DNA of 64,000 bases from Ruditapes philippinarum (Eukaryota), in NCBI RefSeq assembly GCF_026571515.1, contig NW_026857783.1, positions 114,878-178,877 of the forward strand, given 5' to 3'. The translations under genes and the position numbers were made by a program. How positions within the stretch are numbered: position 1 is the first letter of the stretch; each line of letters opens with the position of its first letter. Under the pieces are notes generated by a model that saw only the letters and a list, made by a program, of their open reading frames with translations, made no database searches and was not told the origin of the DNA. Of this stretch, positions 1,433 to 42,394 are shown in pieces.

Positions 1433-1483
1433 ATGCCTATAGAAGCAGGAACAACAAGTAATCAGGAAAAAGAACTACGACAG
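1433..1483 (+). CDS. Ninjurin-like paralogue A, coding exon 1 (MPIEAGTTSNQEKELRQ); donor caggtaatg
   Basis: ATG at 1433. The exon ends in phase 0 immediately before gtaatg at 1484. It is in frame with downstream exons 2 and 3. Confidence 0.45.
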
Positions 1484-2373
1484 GTAATGTGCAATTCTTC
1501 TCAATTTTCTCGTAAATTTCAGAATGATTTTTTTTTCGGATTTCTAGAAATAAGTTAAAAAAATGATTAAAGTTTAAATATAAAAAGAGACAAGAATCAC
1601 AAAAAGAATCATAACTCTTTTAGCATTGCCTGTTGAACTATAGACACTATGATCATATGATCAAAAGTTAAAAATTAGTCTTCAGTTTTAACTTGAGAGC
1701 AATGTTTGACGTACAGTACTAGTTTGTTTGTTTCATTTTACACCTTTTCCCAACAGTATTTCAGTCATATAGGCGGGTAGTTTCCTAACCATCGTTCCCC
1801 GAGAGTTACACCAGTTATACTAGACTACCTTCCTCCGCAAATACAACAATACAAATTAAATTTCATCTTATTATAAGAAGTTAAAATGACGTTGGACAAA
1901 ACAATATGAAAGGGTTACAAATTATTATACTATCATATGAATATAAGGCACATACAATTATATCCATGTAATGTTGATAACATTCTGACCGTTGCCTTAT
2001 TTCATTACGTGCCAACATTCGTTGTCTAAATATATCCATTCTGCTGAGTAAGCTGCAATAAAAACACTTCAAACACAACACAAAAGTCTTGACAAACGCC
2101 AATGTTATGTCATCATTTCCATTTCATAACATTTACTTGTTTGTTCTTTTGTTCATTTCAAGTTTCGTTTCGTTCAAAGCCTTGATAATGGCCGTGTTGT
2201 CATAACGGTATTTCAGGTAAAATATCTGGAAAATTGTTATTCCGACCTATGCTTGAATATATTCTTAAAGTCGTTTCTTATAAAAAAAAATGTTGCTTGG
2301 AAAATAAATGAAAACCTACTGAATTAAATATCGTCAATCATGTGCTGATTGTTAATTTCAATTACTATTGCAG

Positions 2374-2445
2374 AAAGAAGTTATGGAATCACAGCACATT
2401 ATGACTGAAGCCAGTATTCCCAAATCAGAACACGATCAATTGAAG
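2374..2445 (+). CDS. Ninjurin-like paralogue A, exon 2 (KEVMESQHIMTEASIPKSEHDQLK)
   Basis: Acceptor ttactattgcag at 2362-2373. Donor aag|gtaagt at 2446. Phase 0 at both ends. Confidence 0.55.
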
Positions 2446-2696
2446 GTAAGTTTTCATCTGGCTAGATAGACAATGTAAGGCATTAAACATATTTGTAAAA
2501 GACAGAAGGAAAGTACGAATTATACCATAAATAATTCATTGTACAACTTTATTTGCATCTCTTTTGAATTTTGAAGGTTTTTTCTGGACATCCATAGTGT
2601 GCTTGTATATATTTTGTATCGTAATTGTTTCATTCGCGTTTGTTTTGCAACATCTATTGACGTAACGCAGATTAAAATGTGCACTCTTATTTTCAG

Positions 2697-3095
2697 AATG
2701 AAAGGATAGAGAAAGGACAGAACAGGTTCTTGCGTCACAGAAACTTCATTTTTCAACGGATTGACATCGCTTTAGTTCTTGCCAATTGCTATCAGATAAG
2801 AACCATTATCTCAGAACCAAACAAACATGAATATTACAAGATACCATTGGGGTTTGCGATAGCTTCAATATGTTTACAGATTTTGTTTACGATACTGATG
2901 GTCATATCTTGGCAAGCAGATAAAAAGTCAATAGACTCTCAAGGCAATATAAAAAAGGCTGAAAGTTTGATAGGCAAGGTCTCGCAATTCATTGCCATGC
3001 TTTTAGTTCTATTTATTGTCATTTCAAACATTGTTGTTGTAGAATTTGGGGCTATGACCAGCAATAGTAAAGGAAATGGAACTGACTTAAGTTGA
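2697..3095 (+). CDS. Ninjurin-like paralogue A, last exon (NERIEKGQNRFLRHRNFIFQRIDIALVLANCYQ...two TM helices...), TGA at 3093-3095
   Basis: Acceptor ttattttcag at 2687-2696. The translation carries the ninjurin signature: an amphipathic helix DIALVLAN, as in human NINJ1 ...MLDIALLMANASQLKAV..., then two hydrophobic helices with ...IVISNIVVVEFG, as in NINJ1 IIVVVNIFITAFGV. The intron position and phase match paralogue C. Confidence 0.8.
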   Translation, partial: NERIEKGQNRFLRHRNFIFQRIDIALVLANCYQIRTIISEPNKHEYYKIPLGFAIASICLQILFTILMVISWQADKKSIDSQGNIKKAESLIGKVSQFIAMLLVLFIVISNIVVVEFGAMTSNSKGNGTDLS

Positions 3096-3156
3096 GATCT
3101 TACTTTTTGCATAAAAGATTATCGTTAATATTGTGGAGTTGTTTTTAATCAGAATG

Positions 3157-3162
3157 TAATAA
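3157..3162 (+). promoter_or_regulatory. AATAAA polyadenylation signal for ninjurin-like A
   Basis: aataaa lies 62 nt after the TGA stop. Confidence 0.4.
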
Positions 3163-4744
3163 AAATGTACTGAAAAAAGGAAAAAAAGGAAAAATAAATC
3201 ATGAACTTGACCAAATAATTTTTTTTAAGATTTTTATTATAATTTTCTGAGAAATAGTGGTTGAAATAGTGTTAAAGATGTTTCTACGGACGGAGTACAA
3301 ACTATGTTGGGTTATTTTTACATTTAAAAATCGTGTTAATGTATAAATACACAGAATATATTGTGTAATGGTCACCATATTATATTTCATGTAGCGCACA
3401 AGAGGCATAATATGAAAGTATGGTCATTTCATATTTTAGACAGAAACTCGGCAAAAATGTTGTCATATAATGTTTTTGTAATAACATTATGTATTTTTAG
3501 ATGTGTAAGTGTGGACATGCGATGAATTTTATGTGACTCTTTGCCTATTTAGTATACCCTAAATCATTGTTCATATATTGTATACTTGTATATGATAGCA
3601 TTTTTGCTCTGCTTTGTATTATGAAATAATACTGCAAATTTTATTATGAATATTCAAATGCTTATTACTTGCAACACTCAGCAGGCTCATTACGTTGAAT
3701 CATCAGTTCTCGACCTTTACAATATTTGTCCCCTTTGCCAAAAGTGGCAGCCAATTTGGGGGTCAATATTTGATAAAATATAATTGAAAAAAAATAATGA
3801 AGAAAAAAAGAGAAACAGGTGAACTGTGAAATTCTTTTAAACGCATGAAGGCAAATATTAATATTATTATAGTACCAGTATGTAAAAGATTTTTATCAGT
3901 TTACATTGTCCGTAACATTTTAGCTTAGGCATATAACATATGAGGAATGTCCCTCAAAATGGCGACCAGAGGAGATAATGATTGCTATGTGGAAAGCATC
4001 TATAATAATGATTGATGGTAAATTTATAAATTAACTCAAAGCAGTTTGTTCCATACCAATTTATATTATTTTAAAGATCATATATCCTGGTTGCATATTG
4101 CACATAATTATATAAACTGTATTCATACAAACGAATATAATTCAAATGTCACATAACTGTTTTTCTAAAATAAAAGATAAAATTATTTTTGTTTTTGGTT
4201 CTTTTTATTTGACCGTTTGGATTTGTTCGCAATTCATTAAAACAATTTTAAAAATAAAATAAAAAACATTTTTTTTTAATTTGTAAGCACAGGTATACCA
4301 TTTTGTTAAAATTGTAATCTATAATCTAAATGCATATGTATTAAGCAGTACTGTCAAACGAACCTTCGAATTAATTCGGAAACTATGGAATCAATATACC
4401 GGTAAATGCCTGTCTAGGCTGAAAATATAGAAAAACTTCATCTTATGCCTATATTGTTCCAGCTTCAAAATCTGGAGAAAATATGTATTTCATCAAGAAT
4501 AATCTGAAACTTTTGTAAACGATATCGTTTCCTCGTGTTCAACTATATTTACGCCGCCCTATCCAACCTTCCTGTGCGGTGTCCCACTGGGTAAGGCCAA
4601 TAAACGCTAACAGGCGGTTGCGCTCCATGAACAGTACGTGCTGTTCCCTTTGTTGACCTCTGCTCTTATGTTTAAATAATATTTTTTTCCATATACATGT
4701 AGACAGTTTACCTCACCATGAAAATTGTGTTTCACACGAAAGTC

Positions 4745-5160
4745 CATTCTATGGTGGCTGATTTGGTACACTTTGCGCGTTGCGTTGTCAATAGCAACAA
4801 CGCAACCTATATCGTTATCGCCTTTTTTTGTCTTGTCGCTAGCGAAACGCGCATTACGGCGCGTTGTCGCACTGTCGTCCTGTCTCCTGTCGTAAGCGAA
4901 GCACGCAAACGGCACGTTGTCGTGCGGTGCGTTGTCGCAATGTCGCCCTGTTGCTTGGCTTATATATACACAAATAGCCAAGCCTAGCGCCACTTTGAAA
5001 TCGCGACAACACGCCGCACGACAAAGCGCCGTTTTGCGTGCTTCGTTACCAACAGGGCTACAAGACGACAGTGCAACAACGTGCCGTTTGGTGCTTTGTT
5101 GTGCTGTCGCTAGCGACAACATAAGGCACAAAAGTGTTCCAAATCAGCCACCATACCTTT
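4745..5160. repeat. Foldback or long inverted-repeat element, GC-rich, with arms of about 200 bp around a centre near 4960-4985
   Basis: The reverse complement of 4990-5160 aligns to 4745-4950. Examples: ccattctatggtggctgatttgg versus ccaaatcagccaccatacc; gtcgctagcgaaacgcgc...ggcacgttgtcgtgcggtgcgttgtcgc versus gcgacaacacgccgcacgacaaagcgcc...gtcgctagcgacaac. The overlapping ORFs in three frames (174, 89 and 85 aa) are artefacts of the palindrome. Confidence 0.8.
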
Positions 5161-7828
5161 CACTTCTGAGATGACCTTAGTTACCACAGATAAATTTATT
5201 TCAATGCAAAGATCCATGCATGACCTTAATATTTTCAATTTGAATTATCAAATTAGTGAATTATATTTAGAATTTCACTACAAAATATTTCTTAAATGTT
5301 TGTGGTCAAACCTATTGTTTTTCAAATAAAAAGGTCAATTTTATTTTGTTTTCCTTTATTAACAGATAATTAAACTGACGGTCATCAAAGTATATATCTA
5401 AAGTTTATAGTCAAGATCTAAACCCCGTGTTTACCAAGAAAAAAATCTTGATCCAATGATTATAATTTTATTGCATTATTGAGATAAACTTGACCGTATT
5501 AGACTAAAAAAAGGAAACAAAAAAAAAGCCGACTTGCAAAGAAACGACCGTTTTTGTGGGATAAAATTAAGGAAAAACAATACAAATACAGCATTAGATA
5601 GATCAAAATAAGGAAAAACGTCAGGATCAAGTTCTATATTAGTATCAACTGTTAATGTGACATTAAGCCAATCTAAGTGTAAATGGTGGGTGTACAGATC
5701 AGTCAAAATAACTTATAATTTTGCCATGCCTTAAATTCTATTCCATAAACCACGTGATTTACAGATATTTCTATAAATATCATGTGCAATGTATCGTTAA
5801 CGTTCACTTGATCAAAAGAGTAGGACAGTTTTTTATATTTTTAACAATTGTTATAATTTATCCTAAACAATTCTATATATTGGTCAATGACCTTTATAAT
5901 AGTCAATATTTTTTAAATATATGTGTTGCCCATTCAGTTCAACTCGACAAAGAAAAATGAACATACTGTCACTTGAAATGTACATATTTTGTAAGGTAAT
6001 AATTCAAATTTTATTCTAAAATTTCAAAAACATATCATTTTAAGTCCACTTTTGTATCTAGCTTATAATTACTGATAAATATAATAATGCGGAAAAATAA
6101 TGGAGAACATTTGAGTTTTTCATTCGATAAAAAAGTTGTAGTCCTAAAACATTTCATAATTAACTAAACATTACAAGAAATAAAAAAAATACCTGGCGAC
6201 GGTGAAAAGGTTTTATAACTGTTTTTTTCTGTGGATTTTGCAAAACTGAAAAGATTTTTAACGTCAGGTATATTCTGCTCAACAACTTTATTTCAAACCG
6301 CAACAAAATTGTTTCTTTGAAAAAAAAAGAGTAAAAAATTTAGTTCGAAGAAATAAATCATTCTAAATATACCGAATCACCAGAATAACGCCATTTGCTA
6401 TTTCAACGAAAATAACATTTATTAATGGATTGTATGCAATGTAAAACTGATTAATTATCAGATAGTAAATTGTTGCTTTGCTGCACATTAGACCTTGAAC
6501 ATGTTCAAATGAAGTATTTTCAAGCAGACGATTTAATCATGATTAAGAACAAATTTGCATTTTCTAGTGCAATTTTTCTATTTTAAGGAAAGTGATTAAG
6601 TATCGAATTAATATCCTGTTTCACAGTCCGTATATGGTCATAAAACAAAAATAAATGATTTACCGTATTAGATGAAATTTCCTTGAAAGGTTTATCAATC
6701 AATCAATCAATCAATATTTTTATTTCTCTTAAGACATGCAATAGACATACATGACAACATGAGGTAACTATAAAAATAGGAATAAATCGAGGCACTTATC
6801 AAATCATATATCCACATGAAAGCAAATTCGGAACAATAATTAATAATGTCTGGTAAATTTTAATAATGTCATTATCAAGAACAATAAAAATTAATCTTGC
6901 ATAAGAAGGAGGAAAAAGAAAATGAAAAATAATATATATATATAGGGGCCAATGATAAATTACCTTTAAGTTAAATGTAGGCCATGGTTAACTGAGCGAC
7001 AAATATCAAATCACACATCGATTGAACTCCATATGCACGATATGAGTACATTTCATACCGAACAGAACAGAACTTTTATTTCTTTGATTTGCAAATAGTA
7101 CATCATCATATCGACATATATAATTTCAGAGTAACAAATACATTTCAGTGCGAGCAATCAATGCAATAATATTAAAGAATATTACACAGGAGGATGTTTG
7201 TCATATTTGTTTCGTAGCTTAATGTTTTACCACTGATTACAGTTTTGCTAACATCTTTAAACACACATAAAACAATTTCAGTGTTGTGAAAACAACTTCT
7301 AATTTACCAATGACTCGTGTAAAGTATTGAAGTGTTTAATTTAATTTTATATACAGCACTAAGTGTCTCTCTTAAACTTTACTATATTATATATTTTTAA
7401 TCTAGGCAAAACCATTCATCATTTTTGGGGAAATTTCTAAAAATTTAATAACTAAATAGCAAACAGTGCAGACCATGATAAGACGATTCGTATGTGTTGG
7501 GTGGTCTTGGTCTATATGGGTTGCATGGGTAAAATCCGTCACGATATCAACAAAGTAAGAGTTAAGAACAAAATACGCTGTGGGTAATCAAAATTCATTT
7601 ATACAAACTAACATTTAGAAACTCGTGTTCAATGCACACATAAGATAAAACATCCGGATGTACGTGTCACGTATGAATAAACAATATGTTCATTATATTT
7701 GCCTACATTAAATTCATTTGTTTCTCAATATGGTTAATAACAATAGTACAGTCTCATTACGACATGAATTAATGTAAATGATCGACAATGAGAACGTTTT
7801 CAATAAGTATTTCAAATTTTGACAATAT

Positions 7829-8063
7829 GAGCCGCGTCATGACAAAACCAACATAATGGGTTTTCGACCAGCATGGATCCAGACCAGCCTGCGCATCCGC
7901 GCAGTCTGATCAGGATCCATGCTGTTCGCTATCAGTTTCTCTACTTGTTATAGGGTTTGTAAGCGAACAGCATGGATCCTGATCAGACTGCGCGTATGCG
8001 CAGGCTGGTCTGGATACATGCTGGTCGCAAACGCATTATGTTGGTTTTGTCATGACGCGGCTC
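7829..8063. mobile_element. Palindromic MITE of about 230 bp, copy 1 of a 4-copy family
   Basis: Terminal inverted repeats gagccgcgtcatgacaaaaccaacataatgggtt...gaccagcatggatccagaccagcctgcgcatccgcgcagtctgatcaggatccatgctgttcgc. The reverse complement of this repeat occupies the other half of the element. Confidence 0.85.
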
Positions 8064-8361
8064 AAATGTATTTCAAAGATTGATAAAATCAACAGAATTG
8101 TATCATTTAAATATTCCAAAAAAACATTTCTTGAGATTAAATTAAATGTTCTTAAAACTTCAAAGCGATTTGATACGAGTTATCATATGATGAATAATAA
8201 TATTTTCTTATAAAATAATTTAATACATGTTATATAAAGGTATGTCATACCTGATCTTGTACCTCACTTAACAAAAACATGTATTATATATAATTATTTC
8301 ATGGTATATTGATACGTATGATACAAAATACTATCAACGTCCTTATTTATGACATAATATG

Positions 8362-8585
8362 GGCCGTGTCATGACAAAACCAACATAATGGGTTTGCGAC
8401 CAACATGGATCAAGACCAGCCTGCGCATCCGTGCAGTCTGATCAGGATTTTTTCAAACCCTATAACAAGTAGAGAAAGTGATAGCGAACAGCATGGATCC
8501 TGATCAGACTGCGCGTAAGCGCTGGCTGGTCTGGATCCATGCTGGTCACAAACCCAATTATGTTGGTTTTGTCGTGACGCGGCTC
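8362..8585. mobile_element. Palindromic MITE, copy 2
   Basis: Same family as 7829-8063, about 90% identical. It lies 300 bp from copy 1. Confidence 0.85.
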
Positions 8586-8647
8586 AATTATATTCTATTA
8601 TAGACACATTCAAAAATTTGACATAGACTTTATACAAAATAAATTTT

Positions 8648-8800
8648 TTATTACCTCCCTGTATCTACATGAAATTTTAAATTCGGTAATACCTTTATAA
8701 ATAATGCTTTTTGGAACTTACAAAATTGATAAATCTTAATTTGAGCATCATATTTATGAAATAAAACCATAAAAAATTTGGGTTACAGGATCTTCAAAAT
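8648..8800. repeat. Dispersed repeat of about 155 bp; second copy at 36446-36605
   Basis: ttacctccct..catttacatgaaat(g)tt(g/a)aattcggtaata(c/t)ctttataaataatgct...cttaatttgagcatcatatttatgaaataaaaccat(a/g)aaaaaa is shared by both loci. Confidence 0.7.
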
Positions 8801-9328
8801 TGTTTAAAAAAATGTTTTTGCTATAAGTACAATTGATTACGTATTTTGAATGATGCAAAAATACTACTCTGTTTATATTTTTTTACTTTTGTGACAAATA
8901 ATGTCATATTCAGCGATATTTTTTTTACGTGATAAGCATCGTGAATATGCTCTAAAAATCATAATTTCAAACATGTTATAAATCTCATATATACCTTTTC
9001 TGAAGAAGGAAATATTTCCTTGTTAGGCATAATGTGCCTTTAATCCAACTTGAAAAATTTGAAAGAAAATAAAAGTAGGATTAACAAAGAGATTTTGTTT
9101 GACTGCTTTGAAAACATTATACATACTAATACACATGTACAACAACAACAACAACAAGATTTGTATTTAATGGGTTTTGAGAAATTACTTAACAATAAAA
9201 TGTTGCGCTTACGATCCATTGTTATAATATGAAACACAACATTTCAACCATACGGATTTATGATATTCCACCAGCCTTGTTCCATGAAGCGCTGAGAAAC
9301 CTTAGAGTTCAGAAGCCTACAAAAAAAA

Positions 9329-9757
9329 CTATTCTGGTGAGCTTATTTCATTGTGATAATGACTTTCTATACCGAATCCTGCTATGAAAACATTTGAAAC
9401 AATAACAAACAAAACAAGAACGCTTCCAGTCCTATCCAGCCATGTTGCAATTCTTTCCTTTCGTTTCATTTGTGGATCGTCTTCACTGGGTTTCGTCTCT
9501 ATTTGTTTCGTCTCTATTTGTTTCTCTAATGTTTTTTCAACTGACCATATGATGAGCATACAGATTGTGAAGATTACTTGCAGAGTAATGGACATACAAA
9601 TGAATGTTAATATCAGGTAATAGTGCGGATTGTTGTCAGAGGCAATGAGGGCTTTTAGTTGAGACACGTTCGCCATCATCAGAGCCACGTCCATCAGTTG
9701 ATGTATGAAGTTGCGTTTACCGATATATGCATTAGGTGTTGTCACAGGTTCAATGCT
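9329..9757 (-). CDS. Ninjurin-like paralogue B, last exon (SIEPVTTPNAYIGKRNFIHQLMDVALMMANVSQLKALI...two TM helices...)
   Basis: Acceptor cttcag on the minus strand (plus 9758-9763). The core NFIHQLMDVALMMANVSQLK and the second TM helix VLVLFVIVSNVFIAGFG are shared with paralogue C and resemble NINJ1. Stop codon at 9329-9331. Confidence 0.8.
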   Translation of the reverse strand, partial: SIEPVTTPNAYIGKRNFIHQLMDVALMMANVSQLKALIASDNNPHYYLILTFICMSITLQVIFTICMLIIWSVEKTLEKQIETKQIETKPSEDDPQMKRKERIATWLDRTGSVLVLFVIVSNVFIAGFGIESHYHNEISSPE

Positions 9758-9790
9758 CTGAAGAGTAATTTAAAAGTTGATTTATTTAAG

Positions 9791-10000
9791 CAATCAAAAC
9801 TAAGTGTTTTAAGTGTATCTGTTAGAGCAATTAAAACTAAGCGTTATAAGTGTATCTGTTAGGCCAATCAAAACTAAGCGTTATAAGTGTAACTGTTAAC
9901 CAATCAAAACTAAGTGTTACAAGTACTGTAAGAGCAATCAAAACTATGTGTTATAGGTAACTGTTAGAGCAATAAAAAGTAAACGTTATAAGTAACTTTT
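9791..10000. repeat. Tandem repeat with a unit of about 37 bp and about 6 copies, in the intron of ninjurin-like B
   Basis: Units caatcaaaactaagtgtt(a/t)taagtgtatctgttagagc follow one another. Confidence 0.8.
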
Positions 10001-10447
10001 AAGTAAAAAGATAATAATATGTCTTTAATAAGATTTACTTTCCTCTGCTTAGATTCATTGTACCCAGGAGGTGTTATATTTTCACGAAACATTTTGAATA
10101 AATGAATGTGTAAGACGTTAAACAAATCGATTCAATTCTTTATTGTAACATTTGTAAGTATAGTATTCATGTAAAATTTAAATATTGAGAACAATATTGA
10201 TTATATTGGATTCGTACGCACCTACAATACCTTTATCAGACTCGGCTAGCTCCCCGTCCAATATAGTATTGACAGCTGTATACCTGTCCAATAGAATTCA
10301 GTATTGTACTCTTATATTTTCACATGACATGGAAATACAATTTGTATAATTTCTCTAACTGTACGATGGTGTTCGGCCTTTAAATAAGGATATGCCAGTA
10401 AAACATTTTCACTAAACCTGTATGATAAACAAATAATTGTATAATAC

Positions 10448-10636
10448 CTGCCCTATATCAACCTCTTCTGTCCCTTTATGAATCCCTTCAATATGAGTGT
10501 CAGCTATTTCTTTGTCCAAGTCTGACTCTTCAGAATCAGAATCAGGCAAAGTATTTGTATCATCCATGTTGCTATGTCCTTTACTCATGCCCGTCATTTC
10601 TATTTCAATAGCTTTAAAATCATCACTCGATGCCAT
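10448..10636 (-). CDS. Ninjurin-like paralogue B, first coding exon (MASSDDFKAIEIEMTGMSKGHSNMDDTNTLPDSDSEESDLDKEIADTHIEGIHKGTEEVDIGQ), acidic N-terminus
   Basis: ATG at minus-strand position 10636. Donor CAG|gtatta. Phase 0, joining the acceptor at 9757. This parallels the acidic exon 1 of paralogue C, which ends ..DEADIGFK. Confidence 0.6.
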
Positions 10637-11729
10637 TTCTTAAATTATACAGAAGTGGTCATAAACAAACATGCTTTATATAACTGTAATAAAGAACAAT
10701 AGGTGGGAATTTTACTATGAATAAAAATTAATAAATTGTCGAATCATGGGATATGAGTCTTTGTTTTAGTGCACCGGATTTCCCGACAATAACTTACAAT
10801 GGCAATTCATAAAAATGCTGTATTCACGTGTCGCAAAACACTAAATTTGTCATTTTAAAACTTAATGTCACTTAATCACTGGATAATTGGATAGTTTTTA
10901 TAATTATTTCGTGCACTTTTATAAACTTTTCTCGAAAATTGAATGACTTCATCTTTGCAGTACATCATACAGAATAACAAATAACATTTATTAGAGGCAT
11001 ATTATACCTCAGAAATCCATATTCTTTTCTTTAGAAATGTTACCTATGTGTTTAAAAATGTTTTATTAATATATTTAGAGCTAGTTTGATATTTAACAAC
11101 CGAAGAAAGTAGCGCAAAATGTGCAGTAATGTGTCATAAAGGTAGCAAAATGAAAACAAAGTAGTATTTTGACTTCAGTACAAAACACTAATTCACTATA
11201 CTTTTACCAATTGCCACAGAGCAAACGAAGAAAAGGGTAGTTCACTTTTATGACAAATGTGTATTTTTTAGAAACTGTAACAAGATATCGAAAATTAAAA
11301 GTTTAAAAAAAAATGATAGCATTTCTGAGGCATAATAGGCATTTAAATGGTATATAAGGTGTGTATACGTATGGTATATTTAATAAAACAGTCTGCGGAT
11401 TTTCAACTAATTGTTTTTTATTCACGGCATATTCAATTTTTTATACATTTATACTCATAAGAACAGATTTTAAGTTAAGGTGCAAGTTAAAGTTTCATCA
11501 TAAGAATCACTCATGGTATCATTTACATTATTAGATAGTGGATCCAGACCATTTTTAAGCGGCAGCTGATAAAAAATGCACTACACTTTATCTCTGTGTT
11601 GTTATAATTTTGAGAGACCTTCCGAATCAGTGATTGCAATACTTTTAGTAAGAGGATTACAACATAATACGTCGGTGCTAGGGGGGGGGGGAGCGAGGGC
11701 AGTAGCATTTTCCCTTATTTTACACTGAA

Positions 11730-11880
11730 TCAAATTTCTAACTGGTCACCTACGACTTTTTTCTCAGAAATAGGTCGCACAAATAAAATAAGGTAATTGA
11801 TTAACTAAGTCAATTCATTTAACAGATTGTTTTAAAAGATTTATAATTTTATTACAGGAACGTATTATTTGAAAGACACA
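11730..11880. repeat. Segmental duplicate of about 150 bp; second copy at 12895-13050
   Basis: tcaaatttctaa(c/t)tg...actttttt..aataa...tgat(t/c)aactaagtcaattcattt..cag...ttaaaagatttataa(t/c)tt(t/g)attacaggaacgt(a/g)t.atttga occurs at both sites. The two copies bracket the 40-bp tandem array. Confidence 0.7.
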
Positions 11881-12317
11881 TTAAAACTGAGTCTGTGATT
11901 TACAACATTTGTCATTGCTTACAACTCTCGAAGGATCTCCCCCTTTGCCATTATTTTAGTATACCACGAACATATGTCATTCTGCATACATGTACAGATT
12001 TTGTAATTGATATTTCTATAATTCACTTACGGTGACAACTTATATCTCTTTACATGATTATCTTTACCCCCTATATGTCGTTGTTTTTCTGAATCATTAT
12101 AAAGAAATAAGAATATATAAATCATTAGTCTTCTTACAAAATTAAAACGTAAACAAATGGTTGACAAAGAGTTAATAATGGTAATACCAAGTTAAAACAG
12201 TATTGTTCACATACGCCCCATCCGCTGGATCATGTGACAATAAATGCACTCTTAATTGTAAATCATACAAATGCAGCGTAAAGTAGCTGTGAGTGAGTGG
12301 TAAAAAGATATGAAGTA

Positions 12318-12640
12318 TGAATTTGATAGTTCATTGAAAGTTAACGCCCACGTAATATAATTTACATAGTCATTGAAAGTTACCGCCCACGTAATATAAT
12401 TTACATTGTCATTGAAAGTTACCGTCACGTAATACTATTTACATATTCATTGAAAGTTACCGCCCACGTAATACTATTTACATATTCATTGAGAGTTAAC
12501 GCCCACGTACAATACTATTTACATACTTATTGAAAGTCAACGCCCACATTATATAATTTACATATTCATTGAAGGTTTACGCCTGCGTAATGCTGCTGTT
12601 CGTTTACATATTCATTGAAAGTTTAGGCCCGCGTAATGTC
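12318..12640. repeat. Tandem repeat with a 40-bp unit and about 8 copies
   Basis: The unit tcattgaaagttaacgcccacgtaatataatttacatagt recurs. Confidence 0.9.
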
Positions 12641-15397
12641 TGCATATGCTTATTTAAAATCATATTTTCTATTTGAAAGGTCAAACAGATATATTTTAGT
12701 AAACGGTAAACATAAACTGTTTATCTAATTTATGTTGCATTTACATCGCATTTATATCATGATGTGTTTGAATTATGGTTGTATGGGTATTTTCAGTGCT
12801 ATTTTCGGCTACTTATCAAAACTTCAAGTCGGCTTGTATAGCCATTGACGAATACTTAGCTGCTAATTATTTAAGCAGTGATTAAAAGTATACAAGGCAT
12901 CAAATTTCTAATTGTCGTCTACAACTTTTTTATTTTTTTCTAATAAAGAAAAGATAGTTGATCAACTAAGTCAATTCATTTTGCAGAAAGTATATATTAA
13001 AAGATTTATAACTTGATTACAGGAACGTGTAATTTGATAATGTTCCAAGGACAGTCTTCAAGCTGCCCGAAAAGGTAACTAATTGTTATACTTCTTTCAT
13101 GCGGTGCGGTGACGGCACCTTGACACCGACTTCAACATTAAAACTTCAGACGAATGATATCTTCGAGTGTTTTTGTTTTCATTTTTTTTGTAATGGTGTA
13201 AGCATTGCCATTCATCGAATGCCAAAAAGTTACCAACATACATGGAAATGTCTGCACGTATAGATGTAAAGTGCAAACGTTTCATACATGTCTAAATAAC
13301 ATGCTTCGGTAACAACATAATTTAAAATGTTGTCGTAGAATATATAAGAAGATAGACAGTTCAAAACTAAACTGGTACTAGTCAAATTAAGTAAAGTTAA
13401 CGAATATTCTGACGGCAAACATTCCGCTGGCTCGACAACATTTATCTATTGATATTCTCAGTATATTTTATGCTCTTCTTATCAAATATTATGAACCAAT
13501 TGCATTTTTCCCTCGCAAGTGATATAAGTACTTGTATCAGATCTGTAACTTTGTCATGTTCCTTAAAAAAAACTAAAGTTATATCTAAAAGGTCCGTCTT
13601 GATTGTTAAAATAGTGAATATCTTTATGGAATATTTCCATTTACTGACTTATTTGTAATAAATGTTTAGCAATTCAATTAAATTTAAATCTAATGTCTTT
13701 TTTTTCAGTTTTACAATATCTAACCTTTTCACACTCTCGAAAATTGATTGATAATATTGATAATTTTTACCTGATTATCTTTTCTTCAAGATTTTTTTTT
13801 TCTCAAAATATTACATTTATTTAATCTCCGCACAATAAATATATCATATTGCAGAATGTATCTCTAATTCTCTATATATGTTTTTACTTCGTATAAATAG
13901 ACCAAAGCAGATTGGTTTGATGACATACGATTCTAAAAATAGAAAAATCTTTAATGACAGTATATCATGATAAGGACAAGAAGTTCGAATCAAATAAATC
14001 AAAGTTTCAGAGCGTTTAATATTTGAAATAAGCCCACATTGAGATAACACATGTTTTTTTTTGGCAATCTTTGTATATATGAAATCAAATCTCTCCGTGA
14101 TGCTTAACCTATTTCATTACTAAAAAAACATGCACATGATTTTTAAAACTATTTATAAAAGTATACAAATGATATCCACATGGAATTAGGAATTGGACTG
14201 CAACTTATGCCTACAACAGATGAAAATGAAACCCCTAATGTTCGTTTAACAAGGCAATATTGAAAGTGCGGCAGCCTGTAAACATGGTAAATAAGCGAAA
14301 AGTTTTTAATACAAGCTACCATTCATACTCCTGTCTTAACAGCTGGTCCTTGATAATCAATACAAAAAACAATGATATACATGTACTTACATATAAAAAT
14401 CACATATCATACCATAAAGTTAAAACATTTTATACTTATTATCAGTTTATCTTTTTTGTTATACAATACATGTACTATGAACTGAGATTTGTTACGTTAG
14501 CCAATACAAATATTTTATTACTTTCACACACTGTACATGTAGTTGACGATTTTAGTTACATGTACCAAAGGCAAATAGATACATGTAGGATGGTCCCCTA
14601 TATATGGTACCACTGTTGTTATTATTTCCAGCAAATTGTACAAATAAAAAGAACTTGTATTTACTATTTTATTGAATTGTGTTTTGTTGTCACATCTTGA
14701 CATTAAAATACACATGTCATTGATAAAATAACTTCATGATTTAAACTAGAAACATCTATGGTCAGTCAGCCATGTTTTGAATGGGAGCTTAAACAGAGAG
14801 CACTATGGTACCGTTGTATGTTAATTGATGGCCCTTTTTGGATTCAGTATAATTTTTGTAACAGAATATGATGTCACTACAGTTTCAGCAGACGACCTTC
14901 ACTTGTCGGAACATGAAATTTTAAGTTCAACCGTTAAATATGGGGCAGCTTCGGATTTTCCTATCAATGACAGAATTTATTTAAAATGAAAAAAATTCTA
15001 TCCAAATTCACAAAAAGCAACACTTCCACTTTCACTTTAATGGTGGAAACAGTATTTGGTGGCATTCAATGTGTAAAGAAACAAATTTTCTGATTACATC
15101 GGAATGGGCAAGGACGCGGTACCCGCGGGGAGTACTATACTTCACGTGTTCGTCCGTCAATTTTGTATAAAACTATACATCTGCTTAAAAAACTGTTTGA
15201 ATTTTAAAAAACGAATTCTTCCAAAATTCTTGTATGAAATAAATATGGTAGAAAATTGCCTTAAAAAGTGAACGGCACTGTTAAACTTAAATTAGTAAGT
15301 AGAATAATATTTTGTTCCAGAACGTTTTATTCTGTTAACGTAAAATAGTCATGTGTGATAAATAACAGAGATGAGTTATATTACAACTGACAAATTT

Positions 15398-15630
15398 GAG
15401 CCGCGTCACGACAAAACCAACATAATGGGTTTGCGACCAGCATGGATCTAGACCAGCCTGCGCATGCGCGCAGTCTGATCAGGATCCATGATGTTCGCTA
15501 TCACTTTCTCAACTTGTTATAGGGTTTGTAAGCGAACAGCATGGATCCTGATCAGACTGCGCGGGCGCAGGCTGGTCTGGATCCATGCTTGTCGCAAACA
15601 CACTATGTTGGTTTTGTCATGGCGCGGCCC
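15398..15630. mobile_element. Palindromic MITE, copy 3
   Basis: Same family as 7829-8063. Confidence 0.85.
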
Positions 15631-16149
15631 ATATAATTTTACTTGATACAATATTTTAAAAGATATAGCTTTAGAGAAAGCAGAAATATATCGTGGTCAC
15701 TTATTATTGAACTGAATAGATATAACATTTGATAATCTAAGTGAATAAAACTGTTAATCAAAGTTATTTCATAATAACGTTTTTTACTATGAAGTACGCA
15801 TTACGATATTTATTTGTTTATACTAAAATTATTTCAAAAAAGGATATAAAATGAAGTACGTATTACGGTATTCATTCGGTTTCGTTTTGAATAAAATGCA
15901 TGCAATCATGCAGTCAAGTACGTTTACAGCCAGATCTCAAAGCAATATTGTATAATAAGAATATCACATTAATATAAATATTCATAAGTTTTCTTGTATA
16001 TATCAAAATATACATAAAATGTTATGAGGAAAATTAAGGAATACAAGAAATAGTGTGGCAATTATTTCAAATTGTTTGAGAAGAACATATTTAGATGTCT
16101 AACGCTCATATATCACTTCGTATTCAACACTTCATGTACACATATACAT

Positions 16150-16340
16150 TAATTAGAAACCAACCATCCTGAGCTGTTAATTCAAAGTTTGAAAGTTTAT
16201 TCGTAAATCAGTACAAAAACCTTGGCCACACATTTATACACACTCTTATAATTAGAAACCAAACATCATCGTGAGCTGTTAATTCAAAGTTTATTCGTAA
16301 ATCAGTACAAAAACCTTTGGCCACATATATATACACACAC
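16150..16340. repeat. Two tandem copies of a unit of about 100 bp
   Basis: attagaaaccaa(c/a)cat..tgagctgttaattcaaagttt...attcgtaaatcagtacaaaaacctt.ggccaca appears twice in succession. Confidence 0.8.
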
Positions 16341-16765
16341 ATACACATAAAAGTCAAGACAATATCATTACATTTTAACATATGTTCAATACATTTCAAA
16401 TCAAAATACAAGATCACAAAAAATGAAAGACGTGAACAGAAGTTAATAAGCGGGTAAAAGAACCCGAAAGTTTTTTAAATGATATTTTTAACAGTTGTGC
16501 AGTTGTAGTTTTTTTCTATGAAATATGTTCAATATTAAACCAGATTTGATTCTTTTGAAGAGGATTTTAATCAATTCAATAATTCTCTTTGGTAAAAACT
16601 GAAATAGTTTATCTTTTATTTAAACTATGATAAGATATGCAATATAAAGTAAGAAACGAAGGCCCAAGCCTTGATGCATTAGGCTTCGTGAATTTATATA
16701 TAAATGACACTTGAAGTGTGCCATATTATTTACAATATATCAGGTAATATAGTTAAAAGTTATTT

Positions 16766-17233
16766 TCAGAGTTGAATTTTCGTTCCATTCATCAAAAGCA
16801 AGAATCGTTCGACAACCTTCGATTCTTTCGGAGATTCTGGATCTCCGTGTTCTTCTACCCCAAATCCAGTAATGAAAACATTAGAAACAATTATCAGAAG
16901 CACTAAAATATTTCCAAATTTGTCTAGTCTTTCGGAAAGAATTCGTCGGCTTTCATCCACTGGGTGATTCTCCTTTGGGGACTCCGCTAGGTGCTCTTGC
17001 AGCTTCTTTTCTATGGACCAAATAATCAACATGCATACTGTGAATACCACTTGCAGCACTATAGAACAACAAATGAACGCCAGGAGAATGAAGTAATATT
17101 TGTCCCCCTTGTCCATAGAGAGAAGAGATTTTAATTGAGACACATTGGCCATCAGGAGAGCCACGTCCATCAGTTGATGAATAAAGTTTCGTTTACCAAC
17201 ATAAATGTTGGGGGCACCGGTACTTTCCAAGTC
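16766..17233 (-). CDS. Ninjurin-like paralogue C, last exon (DLESTGAPNIYVGKRNFIHQLMDVALLMANVSQLKSLL...ILVLLIIVSNVFITGFGVEE...)
   Basis: Acceptor caatttcag on the minus strand (plus 17234-17242). This paralogue gives the best NINJ1 match: KRNFIHQLMDVALLMANVSQLKSL versus human KKSAAESMLDIALLMANASQLKAV, and LIIVSNVFITGFGV versus IIVVVNIFITAFGV. Stop codon at 16766-16768. Confidence 0.85.
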   Translation of the reverse strand, partial: DLESTGAPNIYVGKRNFIHQLMDVALLMANVSQLKSLLSMDKGDKYYFILLAFICCSIVLQVVFTVCMLIIWSIEKKLQEHLAESPKENHPVDESRRILSERLDKFGNILVLLIIVSNVFITGFGVEEHGDPESPKESKVVERFLLLMNGTKIQL

Positions 17234-17399
17234 CTGAAATTGAAAACATTGTTTTAAAATCGGAGTAAAGTATATAGAAAGAGAGAGTGTGCTCACAAAT
17301 TAATTACATCAAACGTAGAAAATCACTTTTCTGGTAAAAAAAAGAAAGATATTATTTCAAACCAATAAAAATCATCCAGTAAAACACTTTAACACCGTT

Positions 17400-17625
17400 T
17401 CAGACTTTATTTCCAGCATATTACTGTACTTGTTCCTCTCTAAAGTATCGCTTTACAACACATTTTCTTAAACTTTTTTTTCTGGCTTAAGTCTCTTCTT
17501 AAACTATATTCTATGAATTTCAACATAATTTTTGCCCTTTTTCTAAAGCTCGCTTTACAACACATTTTCTTAAACCTTTTTTCTGGCTAAAGTCTCTCCT
17601 ATATTCTATGAATCCCTTACATATA
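17400..17625. repeat. Two tandem copies of a unit of about 110 bp, in the intron of ninjurin-like C
   Basis: cgctttacaacacattttcttaaac(t)ttttttctggct(t)aagtctc(t)tc...tattctatgaat is duplicated. Confidence 0.75.
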
Positions 17626-17684
17626 CCTTTTATAAAGTTAGCGATAATGCACTATTTACATTTTTGGTTCCTAGTGATACTTAC

Positions 17685-17876
17685 TTTGAATCCTATATCG
17701 GCCTCGTCTTGAGCAACATCAGCGCTGTCTTTATCGTCTGCTTCTACCTTTGGTATTATATCATGTTTATCCTCTAAGATACCCATCCTTATTCCTTCAA
17801 CGCCGCTTTTATCGTCTGCTCCATAAAACGCGTCATTGTTATGTTCCCTTTTCGGCTTCTTACTTTTTAACGCCAT
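17685..17876 (-). CDS. Ninjurin-like paralogue C, first coding exon (MALKSKKPKREHNNDAFYGADDKSGVEGIRMGILEDKHDIIPKVEADDKDSADVAQDEADIGFK)
   Basis: ATG at minus-strand position 17876. Donor AAA|gtaagt. Phase 0, joining DLESTG... at 17233. The joined protein is about 219 aa. Confidence 0.65.
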
Positions 17877-20800
17877 ATTTTGGAGTAATGAAACCGGATA
17901 AACTGGGACGTAATTTATCCCTGTAGTGAAATGCTGGTGACGCTAGAAAAATATAATATAAGTTTATAATAGTTCAGTTATACAGTCAAACTGGATTTAG
18001 GGACCATCATTGAACAAAAACTACATGTTTATAATCTTTTAAAATAGTCTAAAATTTCAGTTTCTCATTGTAATGACCAGAGTAAAAGAACTTTAATCAT
18101 ACCACGTTGTATATCACTTCATATTTAAGGGACAAAGACATTATTTTTACATCAATTGCTAGAAATAATTCTCTTTTTTCCATAAATTTTAATGGAATAA
18201 AGCGCATCCTCCGAATCGAGGTCAAATGCGATACGCAATCCTTAAATACATACTTGTCATGGCCACACTTTAGAAACTTCAACTCTTCCCCATAGCTCAA
18301 AATTAAAGATTGGAAATAGAAAAATCCATTTAAAATCATAAGTTATTTTGAAGTTGAAACAAATCCTGTAAAAAATATTAATCAAGCCACCATTAAAAAC
18401 GAATCATGTGGAATGGTAGTATTTTTCTTACACGAAATGCAATTTGATTTAATGCAGGGCTCAAATCAAGAGTATATAATAAATATTCATTTATTTATAA
18501 TAAAAAGACGCCTCCTTTGCACCACGCCAGAACTAATTACATGTTAAGTATAAGCATAAAGAGGCCATATTTTAATACAATTTACAGCGTTTAGGTATGT
18601 TGATGTCATGCATGCTTATTTTAAGCATACGTTTTCAAAACGCAACATGGTTTCGTATCAGTGTACAACTAAAACGATAAAGTTAAATAAACTAGATTTA
18701 GATAGGACCTTAAAGATAAAAATAGGACAGTGTTCTTTAACAAAATGTATATAAAACATAATATTTAATTAGTTTAAATAAGACGAAATAATTCACGAAA
18801 TCTTCAATAAAGCAAAATTATTATTTATGACTATCAGCAGTAAGTACTTACCGGTATATTAATGAATAACTTAACTAAATTAATAAAATGTACAATTTGA
18901 AAAACAAATCGGTGATGTTTAAATATTATATCCCAATTTTAAGATATACTGAGAATATGCCTGCAAAAAAATAATCAAATGACTTACCGTTATTTGATTT
19001 CAATTATAGAATTTCACGCTACAGATTTTCTAGTCTGGCATCAAGGAGGTTTGCCGTTTTTCGGTTTTCTTCATTTGTCTTAATATAGTGTAGTAGTAAT
19101 AATAATAATGATATCCCAATATAAAGAGTGATAATTTTATTTTAAAATCCAAATTTATTTTTAGTACTTATTTGCTGACATAAATTGACCTCATTTTTTA
19201 TCATAATGATTAGGTCAAAATAACAAATCATTGTATTATCAATAAATTGTTTACATTTCTTCACTGCACTTTCCTGTTGTTAGGTACAACGTTGTGGCGC
19301 ACACATACTGGGTCAGATAAAAACTGCTATATTACGGCCAAAAGATAAAATTAACTGCGTCGCACACAAAGTTTCAACACTTTAATCCCTTTGAACTAAC
19401 ATAAGCAGACAATAATAAAAAATACTACTCAAGGAGGGATAAAGAACACTGTCTTACATTCGTCCCTAACAGTAGTAGTTTAGATACCGAACCCCTCTCC
19501 CCTTCTCACACACACAAAACGGGTCTTACAAGAAAAGCAGCCCTTCCCGCTCCTTTGCTGAAAACGATGTGTTTTGGTTTGGGATGCTTAAAAGAGATCC
19601 ACTAAAAACCGTAGATCGGAGTGATATCAAAAATATTAAGCCGTAATTATAATGATGTCTACATGAAGACAAGATAATGACTTTATAAATGATATAACAA
19701 CCATTTTACAAGGTGAACTGATAAAAAGTTGCTGCTATGATACAGTTGTATCGGTGCAAATAATGACACGTTTTTGTTATTATCATTAAAACGGGTTCAA
19801 TGGTGTCACATTTTTTGTCCTGTACTAAGATTTGACGGTATAACGATTATTTCAGTGCCGAGTGACAACAATCTGGTAATACTGTTAAATCATTTCAAGC
19901 CCACCACGATCATTATAGTCCCGGAAGGAAATTTTTGGGAATAGTTCAGTACAATAATAAAACAAAAGCGTCGTTCTGGTCCTGTTATAGCTCACCTGGA
20001 TAAAATCGGATACTTCTATAAAGGCCCATTAAGCCCATGAAATGCTATCATTTCTGATTTTTTAAACCTTTTTTTATATTTTAATCTTATTATAGTTTCC
20101 AAAACAATACGCATTGGCTATATACATGATATAGATTAACTATCTTCCGCTACTTTTGGTCTTTGGCAAATGACATAAGTCTAGAGAGTTAGCATTTAGT
20201 ATGGAACTCAAAATACTACTTTGTTTATATTTTCCTACATTTACAACACATGACTGAACTTTCAACACTTCTTTCTGCCATTGTTTAACATCTAAAACGC
20301 TCTAAAATCATTATTTAAATATTATAGAACACATATTTTACCTTTCTAGAGAATTAAAAAAAATACTGATTTCAGAGGCGTAATGTGCCATTAAAAAGAT
20401 AATAATGATTTTACAAAATAAGTGGCCCCATGGACTAGAGAGCAGCCATTATTTAAATTAAAGCTTTGTCACAAGGAAGTGACGAATAACCCCACCAGTT
20501 GACAGTAGATTTATTTAAATGTATACATTTTTTAGAAAAATAATTAAGCAATTAGATCTCATAGTTGCATACAGCAAATTATCCCACATTCGAGCCAAGT
20601 TTAAAGATAAAAACTCACAGTGGTATAGGATTTATAAAGTGGATACAGAGTGGATACAAAATTGTCCAATATTTGACTTTCTGCTATCTAACTTTAAGCT
20701 ATGACAGTGACTTTTAGCTGGCGCAATATGCACATTGCCATGTTGATTGGAACAAAAGGAACATTATCCTTCAGAAAAGAATAAATCCTTACTTCTCTTG

Positions 20801-23069: not shown

Positions 23070-23623
23070 TCAAGAACAGCTCTTGTCTAATTGCCTTAAA
23101 TCAATAGGTGCCAGATTTTGTTTGTGTATATTACAAGAATGCTTTTTTATATTTCCTGCAACTGACGACGTGTACTCGCACATCGGACATTTAAAAGGCT
23201 TCTCTTTGGTATGCACACGTTCATGCTGTTTTAAAATCGTAACATTGAAGAAACCTTTGCCACATTCTTTGCAAACAAACTTTCTATTCTTATCGAAATG
23301 CCTGCGTTTGTGTGACCGTAATGCAAACTTAGTCTTCAAAACTTTTCCGCAGATGTCACAAACAGACTCCTCTTGTTCATGAACCTTAATTTTATGCTGG
23401 TGTGCTGCTTTTGTAGTCTTAAATAGTTTTCCACAAATTTCACACGGGTGTATATGAAGAGCTTTCAACTCCTCTTCATTTTTACCACATGACAATTCTT
23501 TATGACTTTTGAAGTTTTCGTATTTGGTCATATGTTTGCCACAGGTTTCGCACTGGTAACTGTTCAGACGCCAAATACTATCCATGTGCTGTTTCTCACG
23601 TTTGTGCTTATAAAGGTCTCGAT
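23070..23623 (-). CDS. C2H2 zinc-finger protein, last exon (about 5 complete fingers plus the C-terminal half of a split finger); stop at 23070
   Basis: Repeated C-x2-C-x12-H-x3-5-H units (CEICGKLFKTTKAAHQHKIKVH, CDICGKVLKTKFALRSHKRRH, CKECGKGFFNVTILKQHERVH ...). Acceptor ctacatgcag in phase 1. The leading YRDLYKHKREKQH completes the finger begun by CPICGEEFEG in the upstream exon. Confidence 0.8.
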
Positions 23624-23689
23624 CTGCATGTAGAAAACATAGAAAAGTTATTAAACAATAGAATAAGTACAATCTGTGATCACTTTCTT

Positions 23690-24364
23690 TAGAAATAACA
23701 ATGTATGTTCTTAATTCTACAAATGTTCTTTGCAGTCATTCACTACTCAACATAATGTAATAACCATTTATGTTCTTAATTCTAGAGATGTTCTTTGAAG
23801 TCATTCACTACTCAACATAATGTAATAACCATGAATGTTCTTAATTCTAGAGATGTTCTTAACAAACATTCTCTACTCAACATAATATAATAACCATTTA
23901 TGTTCTTAATTCTACAAATGTTCTTTGAAGTCATTCACTACTCAACATAATGTAATAACCATGAATGTTCTTAATTCTAGAGATGTTCTTTACAAACATT
24001 CTTTACTCAACATAATGTAATAACCATGAATGTTCTTAATTCTAGAGATGTTCTTAACAAACATTCTCTACTCAACATAATATAATAACCATTTATGTTC
24101 TTAATTCTACAAATGTTCTTTGAAGTCATTCACTACTCAACATAATGTAATAACCATGAATGTTCTTAATTCTAGAGATGTTCTTTACAAACATTCTTTA
24201 CTCAACATAATGTAATAACCATGAATGTTCTTAATTCTAGAGATGTTCTTAACAAACATTCTCTACTCAACATAATGTAATAACCATTTATGTTCTTAAT
24301 TCTAGAGATGTTCTTTACAGACATTCACTACTCAACATAATGTAATAACCATTTATGTTCTTAA
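23690..24364. repeat. Satellite with a 65-bp unit (about 10 copies); proximal block of an array split by an insertion
   Basis: The unit ttctacaaatgttctttgaagtcattcactactcaacataatgtaataaccatgaatgttcttaa is repeated head to tail. The block starts 70 bp upstream of the ZNF exon acceptor and lies in the ZNF intron. Confidence 0.9.
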
Positions 24365-26357: not shown

Positions 26358-27325
26358 TTAATTCTACAAATGTTCTTTGAAGTCATTCAATACTCAACAT
26401 AATGTAATAACCATTTATGTTCTTAATTCTACAAATGTTCTTTGAAGTCATTCACTACTCAACATAATGTAATAACCATGAATGTTCTTAATTCTAGAGA
26501 TGTTCTTAACAAACATTCTCTACTCAACATAATATAATAACCATTTATGTTCTTAATTCTACAAATGTTCTTTGAAGTCATTCACTACTCAACATAATGT
26601 AATAACCATGAATGTTCTTAATTCTAGAGATGTTCTTTACAAACATTCTTTACTCAACATAATGTAATAACCATGAATGTTCTTAATTCTAGAGATGTTC
26701 TTAACAAACATTCTCTACTCAACATAATATAATAACCATTTATGTTCTTAATTCTACAAATGTTCTTTGAAGTCATTCACTACTCAACATAATGTAATAA
26801 CCATGAATGTTCTTAATTCTAGAGATGTTCTTTACAAACATTCTTTACTCAACATAATGTAATAACCATGAATGTTCTTAATTCTAGAGATGTTCTTAAC
26901 AAACATTCTCTACTCAACATAATGTAATAACCATTTATGTTCTTAATTCTAGAGATGTTCTTTACAGACATTCACTACTCAACATAATGTAATAACCATT
27001 TATGTTCTTAATTCTACAAATGTTCTTTGAAGTCATTCACTACTCAACATAATGTAATAACCATGAATGTTCTTAATTCTAGAGATGTTCTTTACAAACA
27101 TTCTTTACTCAACATAATGTAATAACCATGAATGTTCTTAATTCTAGAGATGTTCTTAACAAACATTCTCTACTCAACATAATATAATAACCATTTATGT
27201 TCTTAATTCTACAAATGTTCTTTGCAGTCATTCACTACTCAACATAATGTAATAACCATGAATGTTCTTTATTCTACAGATGTTCTTTACAGATATTCAC
27301 TACTCAACATATTGTATAACAATGT
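26358..27325. repeat. Satellite with a 65-bp unit (about 15 copies); distal block
   Basis: Same unit as 23690-24364. Confidence 0.9.
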
Positions 27326-27927: not shown

Positions 27928-28167
27928 ATCCTTCAAACTCTTCTCCACATATAGGGCACACAGGGTTCGGCATAATTTCTCTATGATTTGCAAACATATG
28001 CTGCCTTAATTTTCTTCTGTCTTGAAACAGGTAATCACATTCAGAACACTTCAGAAATCCCATTTTTAGAAGTTCTTCTGGACTATAATGGCGTTTAGCA
28101 AATCCCCGAGGTTTTGTTTTTGGAAGGGTATGTTTGACCTCATTCCTATGCACCCACAGGTTCTCCA
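27928..28167 (-). CDS. C2H2 zinc-finger protein, internal exon (..LENLWVHRNEVKHTLPKTKPRGFAKRHYSPEELLKMGFLKCSECDYLFQDRRKLRQHMFANHREIMPNPVCPICGEEFEG)
   Basis: Acceptor ttttgtcag in phase 1. Donor GGAT|gtaagtac in phase 1. It contains one complete finger (CSECDYLFQDRRKLRQHMFANH) and two half-fingers completed by the flanking exons. Confidence 0.7.
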
Positions 28168-42376: not shown

Positions 42377-42394
42377 CTGAAACAGTGAATAAGC

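Follow-up and report, generated by a model that had tools for sequence, protein, structure and literature searches.

The present analysis concerns three ninjurin-family genes, here called A, B, and C, within 64,000 nucleotides of DNA from the Manila clam, the venerid Ruditapes philippinarum (NCBI RefSeq assembly GCF_026571515.1, contig NW_026857783.1, positions 114,878 to 178,877 of the forward strand). The whole of this stretch is referred to below as the window. It is AT-rich animal DNA with about 31% GC. An earlier note, made from the letters alone, had described three ninjurin paralogues within 18 kb, and this description is borne out. Three open reading frames (ORFs) hold a ninjurin core, A at 2679-3095 on the plus strand, and B at 9329-9745 and C at 16766-17296 on the minus strand. 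Each of the encoded proteins aligns with positions 2-102 of the 102-position profile of the Pfam family PF04923 (Ninjurin), with 52.8, 65.6, and 74.1 bits for A, B, and C, respectively. The same note had proposed this Pfam search of each protein, and all three scores exceed the curated gathering cutoff of 26 bits. The finding of three such genes in 18 kb stands and greatly exceeds what chance would produce. Their exons and related features are listed here (CDS, coding sequence; TM, transmembrane segment; UTR, untranslated region).

1433-1483 (+): putative exon, look-alike of the first coding exon of gene A, MPIEAGTTSNQEKELRQ, running from ATG to a GT donor in phase 0
2374-2445 (+): middle coding exon of gene A, 24 codons, 72 nt, KEVMESQHIMTEASIPKSEHDQLK; exact match to RefSeq XP_060597089.1; the exon reads AAA...AAG between cag and gtaagt
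2697-3095 (+): core exon of gene A (LOC132751011), with the alpha1/alpha2 helix, TM1, loop, TM2, and stop codon; Pfam 52.8 bits
9329-9757 (-): core exon of gene B including the stop codon; Pfam 65.6 bits; orthologue of the Mercenaria protein P0020
10448-10636 (-): first coding exon of gene B, acidic N-terminus of 63 codons, net charge -14
16314-17233 (-): core exon and 3′UTR of gene C (LOC132751013); the stop codon ends at 16766; Pfam 74.1 bits
17685-17942 (-): exon 2 of gene C, with the CDS start at 17876 and a 64-codon acidic N-terminus; AG acceptor at 17944-17943 and GT donor after 17685
18988-19085 (-): non-coding 5′ exon (5′UTR) of gene C, from the alignment of the RNA-derived contig L008, with a gtaagt donor after it; it lies beyond the stretch that the earlier note had covered

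Family Membership and Copy Number

In a sequence search against the solved chains of NINJ1 and NINJ2, all three clam proteins match both, and NINJ2 is the best match every time (best E-values against the NINJ2 chain of 2e-5 for A, 2e-10 for B, and 2e-13 for C). The columns of D53, L56, N60, Q63, S87, and Q91 in NINJ1 numbering are invariant across an alignment of 44 sequences that includes A, B, and C, and A keeps every invariant column of this alignment. Kyte-Doolittle profiles show two hydrophobic TM segments in each of the three proteins. The signature of two TM helices that had been ascribed to all of them holds as far as the segments are concerned, but its closing motif VSN[VI]F[IV].GFG does not extend to A, which reads ISNIVVVEFG. 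Identity is 56% between B and C and 31-33% between A and either of them, and A lies on the strand opposite to both, so that the previous account of A as much more divergent and oppositely oriented is confirmed.

No fourth ninjurin copy was found in the 64-kb window by tblastn with all three proteins. A weak tblastn match at 38.3-38.5 kb was considered as such a copy and rejected, as it falls inside an unrelated 560-aa ankyrin-repeat ORF and in another frame.

A, B, and C are ordinary members of the known ninjurin family, and all are already in RefSeq. The automated RefSeq annotation names B "ninjurin-2-like" and calls A and C "uncharacterized" despite their recorded Pfam domain. The name given to B is a nominal label and not a statement of orthology. 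Multi-copy ninjurins are already known in invertebrates, and the value of the present analysis lies mainly in annotation: two of the genes, A and C, can now bear the ninjurin name, and the exon structure of A has become clearer. Beyond this, the divergent paralogue A alone provides a modest lead.

Gene Structure and Splicing

A polypyrimidine tract and a CAG acceptor lie directly 5′ of each core exon. In all three genes, the intron before the core is in phase 0, and exactly 22 codons separate it from the D[IV]AL motif that follows; a common intron position and phase had been reported for A and C, which is true of these two genes and applies to B as well.

Joining 10448-10636 to 9329-9757 yields a B protein of 205 aa identical to XP_060597090.1, and joining 17685-17876 to 16766-17233 yields a C protein of 219 aa identical over its full length to XP_060597092.1. 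The structure of C is also documented by RNA. L008, a 1277-nt RNA-derived contig of run SRR12737823, carries the uninterrupted CDS of a near-identical C variant, and its alignment to the window consists of three blocks (19085-18988, 17943-17684, and 17233-16314). This contig is contiguous across the junction 17685/17233, which confirms the intron 17234-17684, and the splice sites are canonical. In another venerid, contigs from three runs carry an uninterrupted CDS across the same C exon junction. The splicing of a first exon to the core, as modelled before, is supported in B and C by identity with RefSeq and in C also by the RNA contig, but the model of A was incomplete.

RefSeq A is XP_060597089.1, a protein of 173 aa that includes the exon 2374-2445, overlooked in the earlier model. 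That model, which joined 1433-1483 directly to 2697-3095, has no exact database match and is wrong in detail, as it omits the middle exon and begins with an exon that is only a look-alike of the one in RefSeq. The RefSeq first exon of A (MATEAGTPSYQDKELRQ) is absent from the window, and the peptide of 1433-1483 (MPIEAGTTSNQEKELRQ) matches it at 12 of 17 residues. By exact look-up, no annotated isoform was found to use 1433-1483, even when it is joined to exon 2. Since RefSeq exon 1 lies outside the window and the look-alike is unused by annotated isoforms, gene A probably begins upstream of the window. The 5′ end of A appears to be duplicated; the look-alike exon suggests either such a duplication or a second A-like gene upstream of window position 1.

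The N-terminal parts of the proteins had been described as acidic, and net charges of -3 in A, -14 in B, and -5 in C agree with this description. Between orthologues, conservation is lowest in the N-terminal exon.

Conserved Residues and Predicted Fold

Residues were aligned to NINJ1 in ungapped blocks anchored on D53, Q91, and N133, and the resulting numbering agrees with the HMMER alignments. NINJ1 (PDB 8CQR, 8SZA, 8UIP, and 9BIA) belongs to the same Pfam family as the clam proteins and has the same fold, consisting of the alpha1/alpha2 helix and a TM hairpin. It has been reported that NINJ1 filaments depend on an inter-protomer salt bridge between K45 and D53 and that lysis is weakened or lost in the mutants K45Q, D53A, I84F, Q91A, G95L, T123L, I134F, and A138L (Degen et al. 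2023, PMC10307626). A, B, and C all keep R45, D53, A59, N60, Q63, Q91, N133, and G140, and these are common to NINJ1, which has likewise a basic residue at position 45. Lysine 45 is replaced by arginine in all three proteins and D53 is kept, and the charge pair of the salt bridge is conserved. B and C keep I84, and only paralogue A has alanine there. In the order A, B, C, the residues found are M, S, and N at position 123 (T in NINJ1) and I, V, and V at position 134 (I in NINJ1), and paralogue A carries S62Y.

NINJ2 (PDB 8SZB), which forms filaments and is non-lytic, is the best-scoring solved relative of A, B, and C and has the same architecture of helix and TM segments. NINJ2 is non-lytic although it shares the helix and the salt-bridge residues, and both cholesterol binding at Q103 (F117 in NINJ1) and a disordered N-terminus are involved (PMC12547243). 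The clam residues at the equivalent position are V (A), W (B), and R (C), according to an alignment that is ungapped from N133 and uncertain at the loop edge, where loop lengths differ.

Residue N60 belongs to an N-x-S sequon within the helix, which NINJ1 shares with clam B and C. The sequon is lost only in A, which reads NCY, and is kept in 29 of the 29 other bivalve ninjurins that cover the region. NINJ1 is presumably glycosylated at N60. A different sequon, N-G-T, occurs at the C-terminus of many bivalve ninjurins (e.g., LLMNGTKIQL), including A and C and not B; vertebrate NINJ1 and NINJ2 lack this tail. Compared with human NINJ1 and NINJ2, the clam proteins have 8-20 additional residues in the cytoplasmic loop between TM1 and TM2. 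In B, this loop contains a direct five-residue duplication, KQIET-KQIET, encoded at 9494-9523 on the minus strand.

The fold was compared for A only, and B and C were compared with the NINJ chains by sequence. The AlphaFold model of A has a mean predicted local distance difference test (pLDDT) score of 68.6, with about 80-87 in the core, and places helices at residues 51-80, 89-121, and 130-163. In a Foldseek search against the PDB, its top five matches are all NINJ1 or NINJ2, with template-modelling scores (TM-scores) of 0.73-0.78 when normalised to the target and a probability of 1.00, at weak E-values of about 1e-2. A is an intact, spliceable gene with a predicted ninjurin fold. The hydrophobic moment of the helix, described earlier as amphipathic, is non-significant in fixed windows even for human NINJ1, and this test cannot discriminate.

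Age and Distribution of the Cluster

Chromosome CM038762.1 of Mercenaria mercenaria carries an orthologue of C (83.624 Mb, +), a divergent ninjurin here called X (83.634 Mb, -), and an orthologue of B (83.671 Mb, +). As in the window, the two orthologues are accompanied by a divergent gene on the other strand, and the three fit into about 50 kb. The order is C-X-B in Mercenaria and C-B-A in Ruditapes, and X and A are mutually dissimilar (40 bits). A was considered as the orthologue of X and rejected on sequence, the two being the least similar pair; positional orthology is conceivable, and both are fast-evolving. X is a protein of 203 aa (L002 19405-20688, minus strand) with a long charged loop, and it is unrelated in sequence to Ruditapes A. 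A further Mercenaria paralogue lies 8 Mb from the cluster, and Ruditapes has at least one more ninjurin (P0030) on another scaffold.

A neighbor-joining tree of the trimmed core was built with Biopython and rooted on human NINJ2; its deep bootstrap values are low, and only the shallow orthologue pairs are relied on. The tree groups C with Mercenaria C and a Mactra protein and joins B to Mercenaria P0020. A has no partner, and its branch is 1.20 substitutions per site long, versus 0.05-0.33 for the other named bivalve ninjurins. Human NINJ1 and NINJ2 are adjacent and all bivalve sequences lie beyond them, a placement that is suggestive only, given the rooting and the weak deep support, and that would mean that NINJ1 has no one-to-one orthologue among the clam genes.

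An HMMER scan with A against 1.84 billion representative proteins returned three close relatives, all of them Ruditapes-like fragments with 77-89% identity, and all remaining matches were at most 36% identical. No orthologue of A was found in the syntenic Mercenaria cluster or, among these representative proteins, outside Ruditapes-like sequences. A is a lineage-restricted, fast-evolving copy.

The duplication that produced B and C predates the split between Ruditapes and Mercenaria, and the cluster is inherited and conserved. The locus is likely an ancestral cluster of venerid clams, with three ninjurin-family genes. The previous wording of a local three-gene expansion is misleading, as B and C have Mercenaria orthologues in a syntenic cluster and tandem arrays occur also in a unionid mussel. 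In the unionid Potamilus, contig JAEAOA010001095.1 carries four ninjurin genes in a row, spread across about 127 kb; these are recent duplicates of one type, unlike the old paralogues B and C of the window. Tandem ninjurin arrays recur in bivalves, and fast-evolving extra members seem to arise repeatedly in the cluster of Ruditapes and Mercenaria. Drosophila has likewise three ninjurin paralogues, NijA, NijB, and NijC, with distinct expression patterns, and the fly and clam duplications are probably independent.

Selective Constraint

The ratio of nonsynonymous to synonymous substitution rates (dN/dS, omega) among the paralogues had been proposed as a test. It was computed and is uninformative, as synonymous sites are saturated (proportion of synonymous differences, pS, 0.71-0.81), and comparisons between orthologues were used instead. 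C differs from Mercenaria C with a pN (the nonsynonymous proportion) of 0.061 and a pS of 0.79, and B compared with its Mercenaria orthologue P0020 has an omega of about 0.08. B and C are under strong purifying selection, with omega of about 0.08 or lower. An 80-nt stretch that is 85% identical between B and C was not taken as gene conversion, as it corresponds to the near-identical helix peptide.

The only comparator for A is L001, a 5.7-kb contig of the Joint Genome Institute (JGI) metagenome 3300049158. It is clam-like DNA within a metagenome assembly, and the stop codon of its A-like copy stands two codons early. Neither form of the first exon of A occurs in this contig. The core CDS of A is 94% identical to that of L001, and the introns and the 3′ flank are 72-88% identical. 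The CDS is better conserved than its flanks, and therefore the coding part is constrained. The omega of this comparison is 0.62 overall (6.5 synonymous and 15.5 nonsynonymous changes); for the helix and TM1 it is 0.20, and for the loop about 1.2. A further A-like fragment, P0047, is 77% identical to A and has an intact TM2 and C-terminus. The divergence of A had been attributed either to an older duplication or to relaxed constraint. Accelerated or relaxed evolution of a lineage-restricted copy is favoured by the omega of about 0.6, the branch of 1.20, and the failure to find an orthologue in the Mercenaria cluster or among the representative proteins scanned, and an older duplication is not favoured.

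Proposed Function

In the explanation that is favoured here, each gene would encode a small membrane protein made up of a disordered acidic N-terminus, a helix like alpha1/alpha2 of NINJ1, a two-helix TM hairpin, and a cytoplasmic loop longer than in vertebrates. B and C would self-assemble in the membrane as NINJ1 and NINJ2 do, the basic residue 45 of helix alpha1 pairing with D53 of the next protomer. Judged from their residues, B and C most likely form NINJ-type oligomers, and A is most likely a sub- or neofunctionalised member with altered oligomer contacts and altered glycosylation. Sequence cannot decide between a lytic assembly, as in NINJ1 and fly NijA, and a non-lytic one, as in NINJ2. 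The salt-bridge pair is uninformative on lysis because the non-lytic NINJ2 has the R/K45-D53 pair too. The locus offers a natural contrast for tests of lytic and non-lytic residues, as it combines two deeply conserved paralogues with a fast-evolving copy altered at positions relevant to NINJ1.

Several observations weigh against this explanation. The earlier note had raised the question of whether the residues of NINJ1 oligomerisation are conserved, and the answer is divided: the R45/D53 pair and Q91 are kept, but G95 and A138 are changed and T123 is variable. G95 is threonine in A, B, and C, and A138 is glycine in B and C and glutamate in A. With these changes, the packing of a clam filament may differ from that of NINJ1, in which G95L and A138L abolish lysis. 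The omega of A is drawn from only 22 substitutions. The A-like copy of L001 (4526-4931) has a 2-bp deletion, and hence a frameshift, just before TM2, and it carries D53N. This copy is probably a decayed allele, a paralogue, or the copy of a sister species, and it hints that the A lineage can decay. Finally, deep support in the neighbor-joining tree is weak, and the placement of A may be a long-branch artefact.

Alternative Readings

The earlier note had presented the cluster as a candidate innate-immunity or cell-death locus, the products of which would rupture the plasma membrane through the conserved helix as NINJ1 does. This is possible but doubtful. The pair K45(R)/D53, Q91, and, in B and C, I84 are conserved, and these residues are required in NINJ1 for filaments and lysis (PMC10307626). 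In Drosophila, NijA is induced by Toll, kills cells by a non-apoptotic route, and forms pores (PMC3460944 and a 2026 preprint), and its killing activity needs the conserved aspartate D140 (PMC3460944). Ninjurin transcripts have also been found among the differentially expressed genes of infected oysters and infested scallops. However, the non-lytic NINJ2 has the same helix and salt-bridge residues (PMC12547243), A, B, and C all score better against NINJ2 than against NINJ1, and G95 and A138, as described above, are substituted. The cluster is ancient and conserved and shows no recent adaptive expansion. Its neighbours are C2H2 zinc-finger, ankyrin-repeat, and Ras-like genes together with a retrotransposon, none of them immune, and nothing in the window supports an immune assignment. 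A literature search on the function of molluscan ninjurins found no paper.

A could also be a decaying gene that is becoming a pseudogene and has no function of its own, which is unlikely. Such decay would agree with the omega of 0.62 overall and about 1.2 in the loop, with the loss of the N60 sequon that all 29 other bivalve ninjurins checked have kept, with the substitutions A138E, I84A, and S62Y, with the failure to find an orthologue beyond Ruditapes-like fragments, and with the frameshift and D53N of the L001 copy. It does not agree with the intact ORF of 173 codons over three exons with canonical splice sites, nor with the retention of all family-invariant residues and an omega of 0.20 over the helix and TM1. 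The CDS of A is far better conserved than its flanks, P0047 keeps TM2 and the C-terminus intact, and the NINJ fold is confidently predicted.

A further possibility is that A is a Ruditapes-specific, neofunctionalised modulator, which might cap or inhibit oligomers of B and C in the manner of dominant-negative NINJ1 interface mutants. It is proposed by analogy, because A has lost the N60 sequon and gained the charged A138E at the filament interface, and it is considered improbable. If it were true, clams would have a built-in regulator of ninjurin assembly.

In NINJ1, the adhesion motif comprises residues 26-37 and contains RWG. The possibility that the clam proteins are mainly homophilic adhesion molecules acting through such an N-terminal motif is very remote: adhesion is the role in which the family was first described (background in PMC3460944) and N-termini are extracellular in the NINJ1 topology, but those of A, B, and C are acidic and poorly conserved, have no tryptophan and no basic RWG-type motif, and are encoded by the exon that varies most between orthologues.

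Repeats and Neighbouring Features

Several repeats accompany the ninjurin genes. A 76-bp tandem repeat of about five copies, with a 152-bp higher-order unit, occupies 296-702, just upstream of the in-window exons of A, and the intron of B contains a 37-bp tandem repeat of 5.7 copies at 9789-9993. A foldback element of about 240 bp, resembling a miniature inverted-repeat transposable element (MITE), is present at 7825-8067, 8357-8556, 15394-15631, and 44433-44664, with several copies between the ninjurin genes. Its inverted arms are 106 nt long and 90-95% complementary, and a stretch of the Mercenaria ninjurin cluster (L002 17893-18129) shares 81-87% identity with the element.

Farther along the window, a C2H2 zinc-finger exon at 23070-23672 (-) is flanked by two 65-bp satellite arrays (23694-24364 and 26357-27324; 195-bp higher-order unit), and more zinc-finger-like ORFs are found at 27899-28237 and 29008-29823. 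The single-exon ankyrin-repeat ORF of 560 aa spans 37997-39679 (-) (Pfam Ank_2, E = 1.7e-11). Its C-terminus resembles a suppressor of cytokine signalling (SOCS) box by eye, and none was detected there by Pfam. A Ras-family GTPase exon follows at 41906-42481 (-) (Pfam Ras, E = 3.7e-14); the start of its ORF crosses a (TGAT)n microsatellite at 42396-42576, which is translated as NQSI repeats. A retrotransposon without long terminal repeats (non-LTR), of the long interspersed nuclear element (LINE) type, occupies 48818-51658 (-), with endonuclease and reverse-transcriptase domains spread over several ORFs and a broken frame, and the GC-rich block at 48-52 kb is attributable to it. Two large satellite arrays lie toward the end of the window. 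The first, at 56320-57861, has a 145-bp unit in 10.6 copies, and the second, at 59511-61588, has a 24-bp unit in about 86 copies, yielding long spurious ORFs and a strong GC skew.

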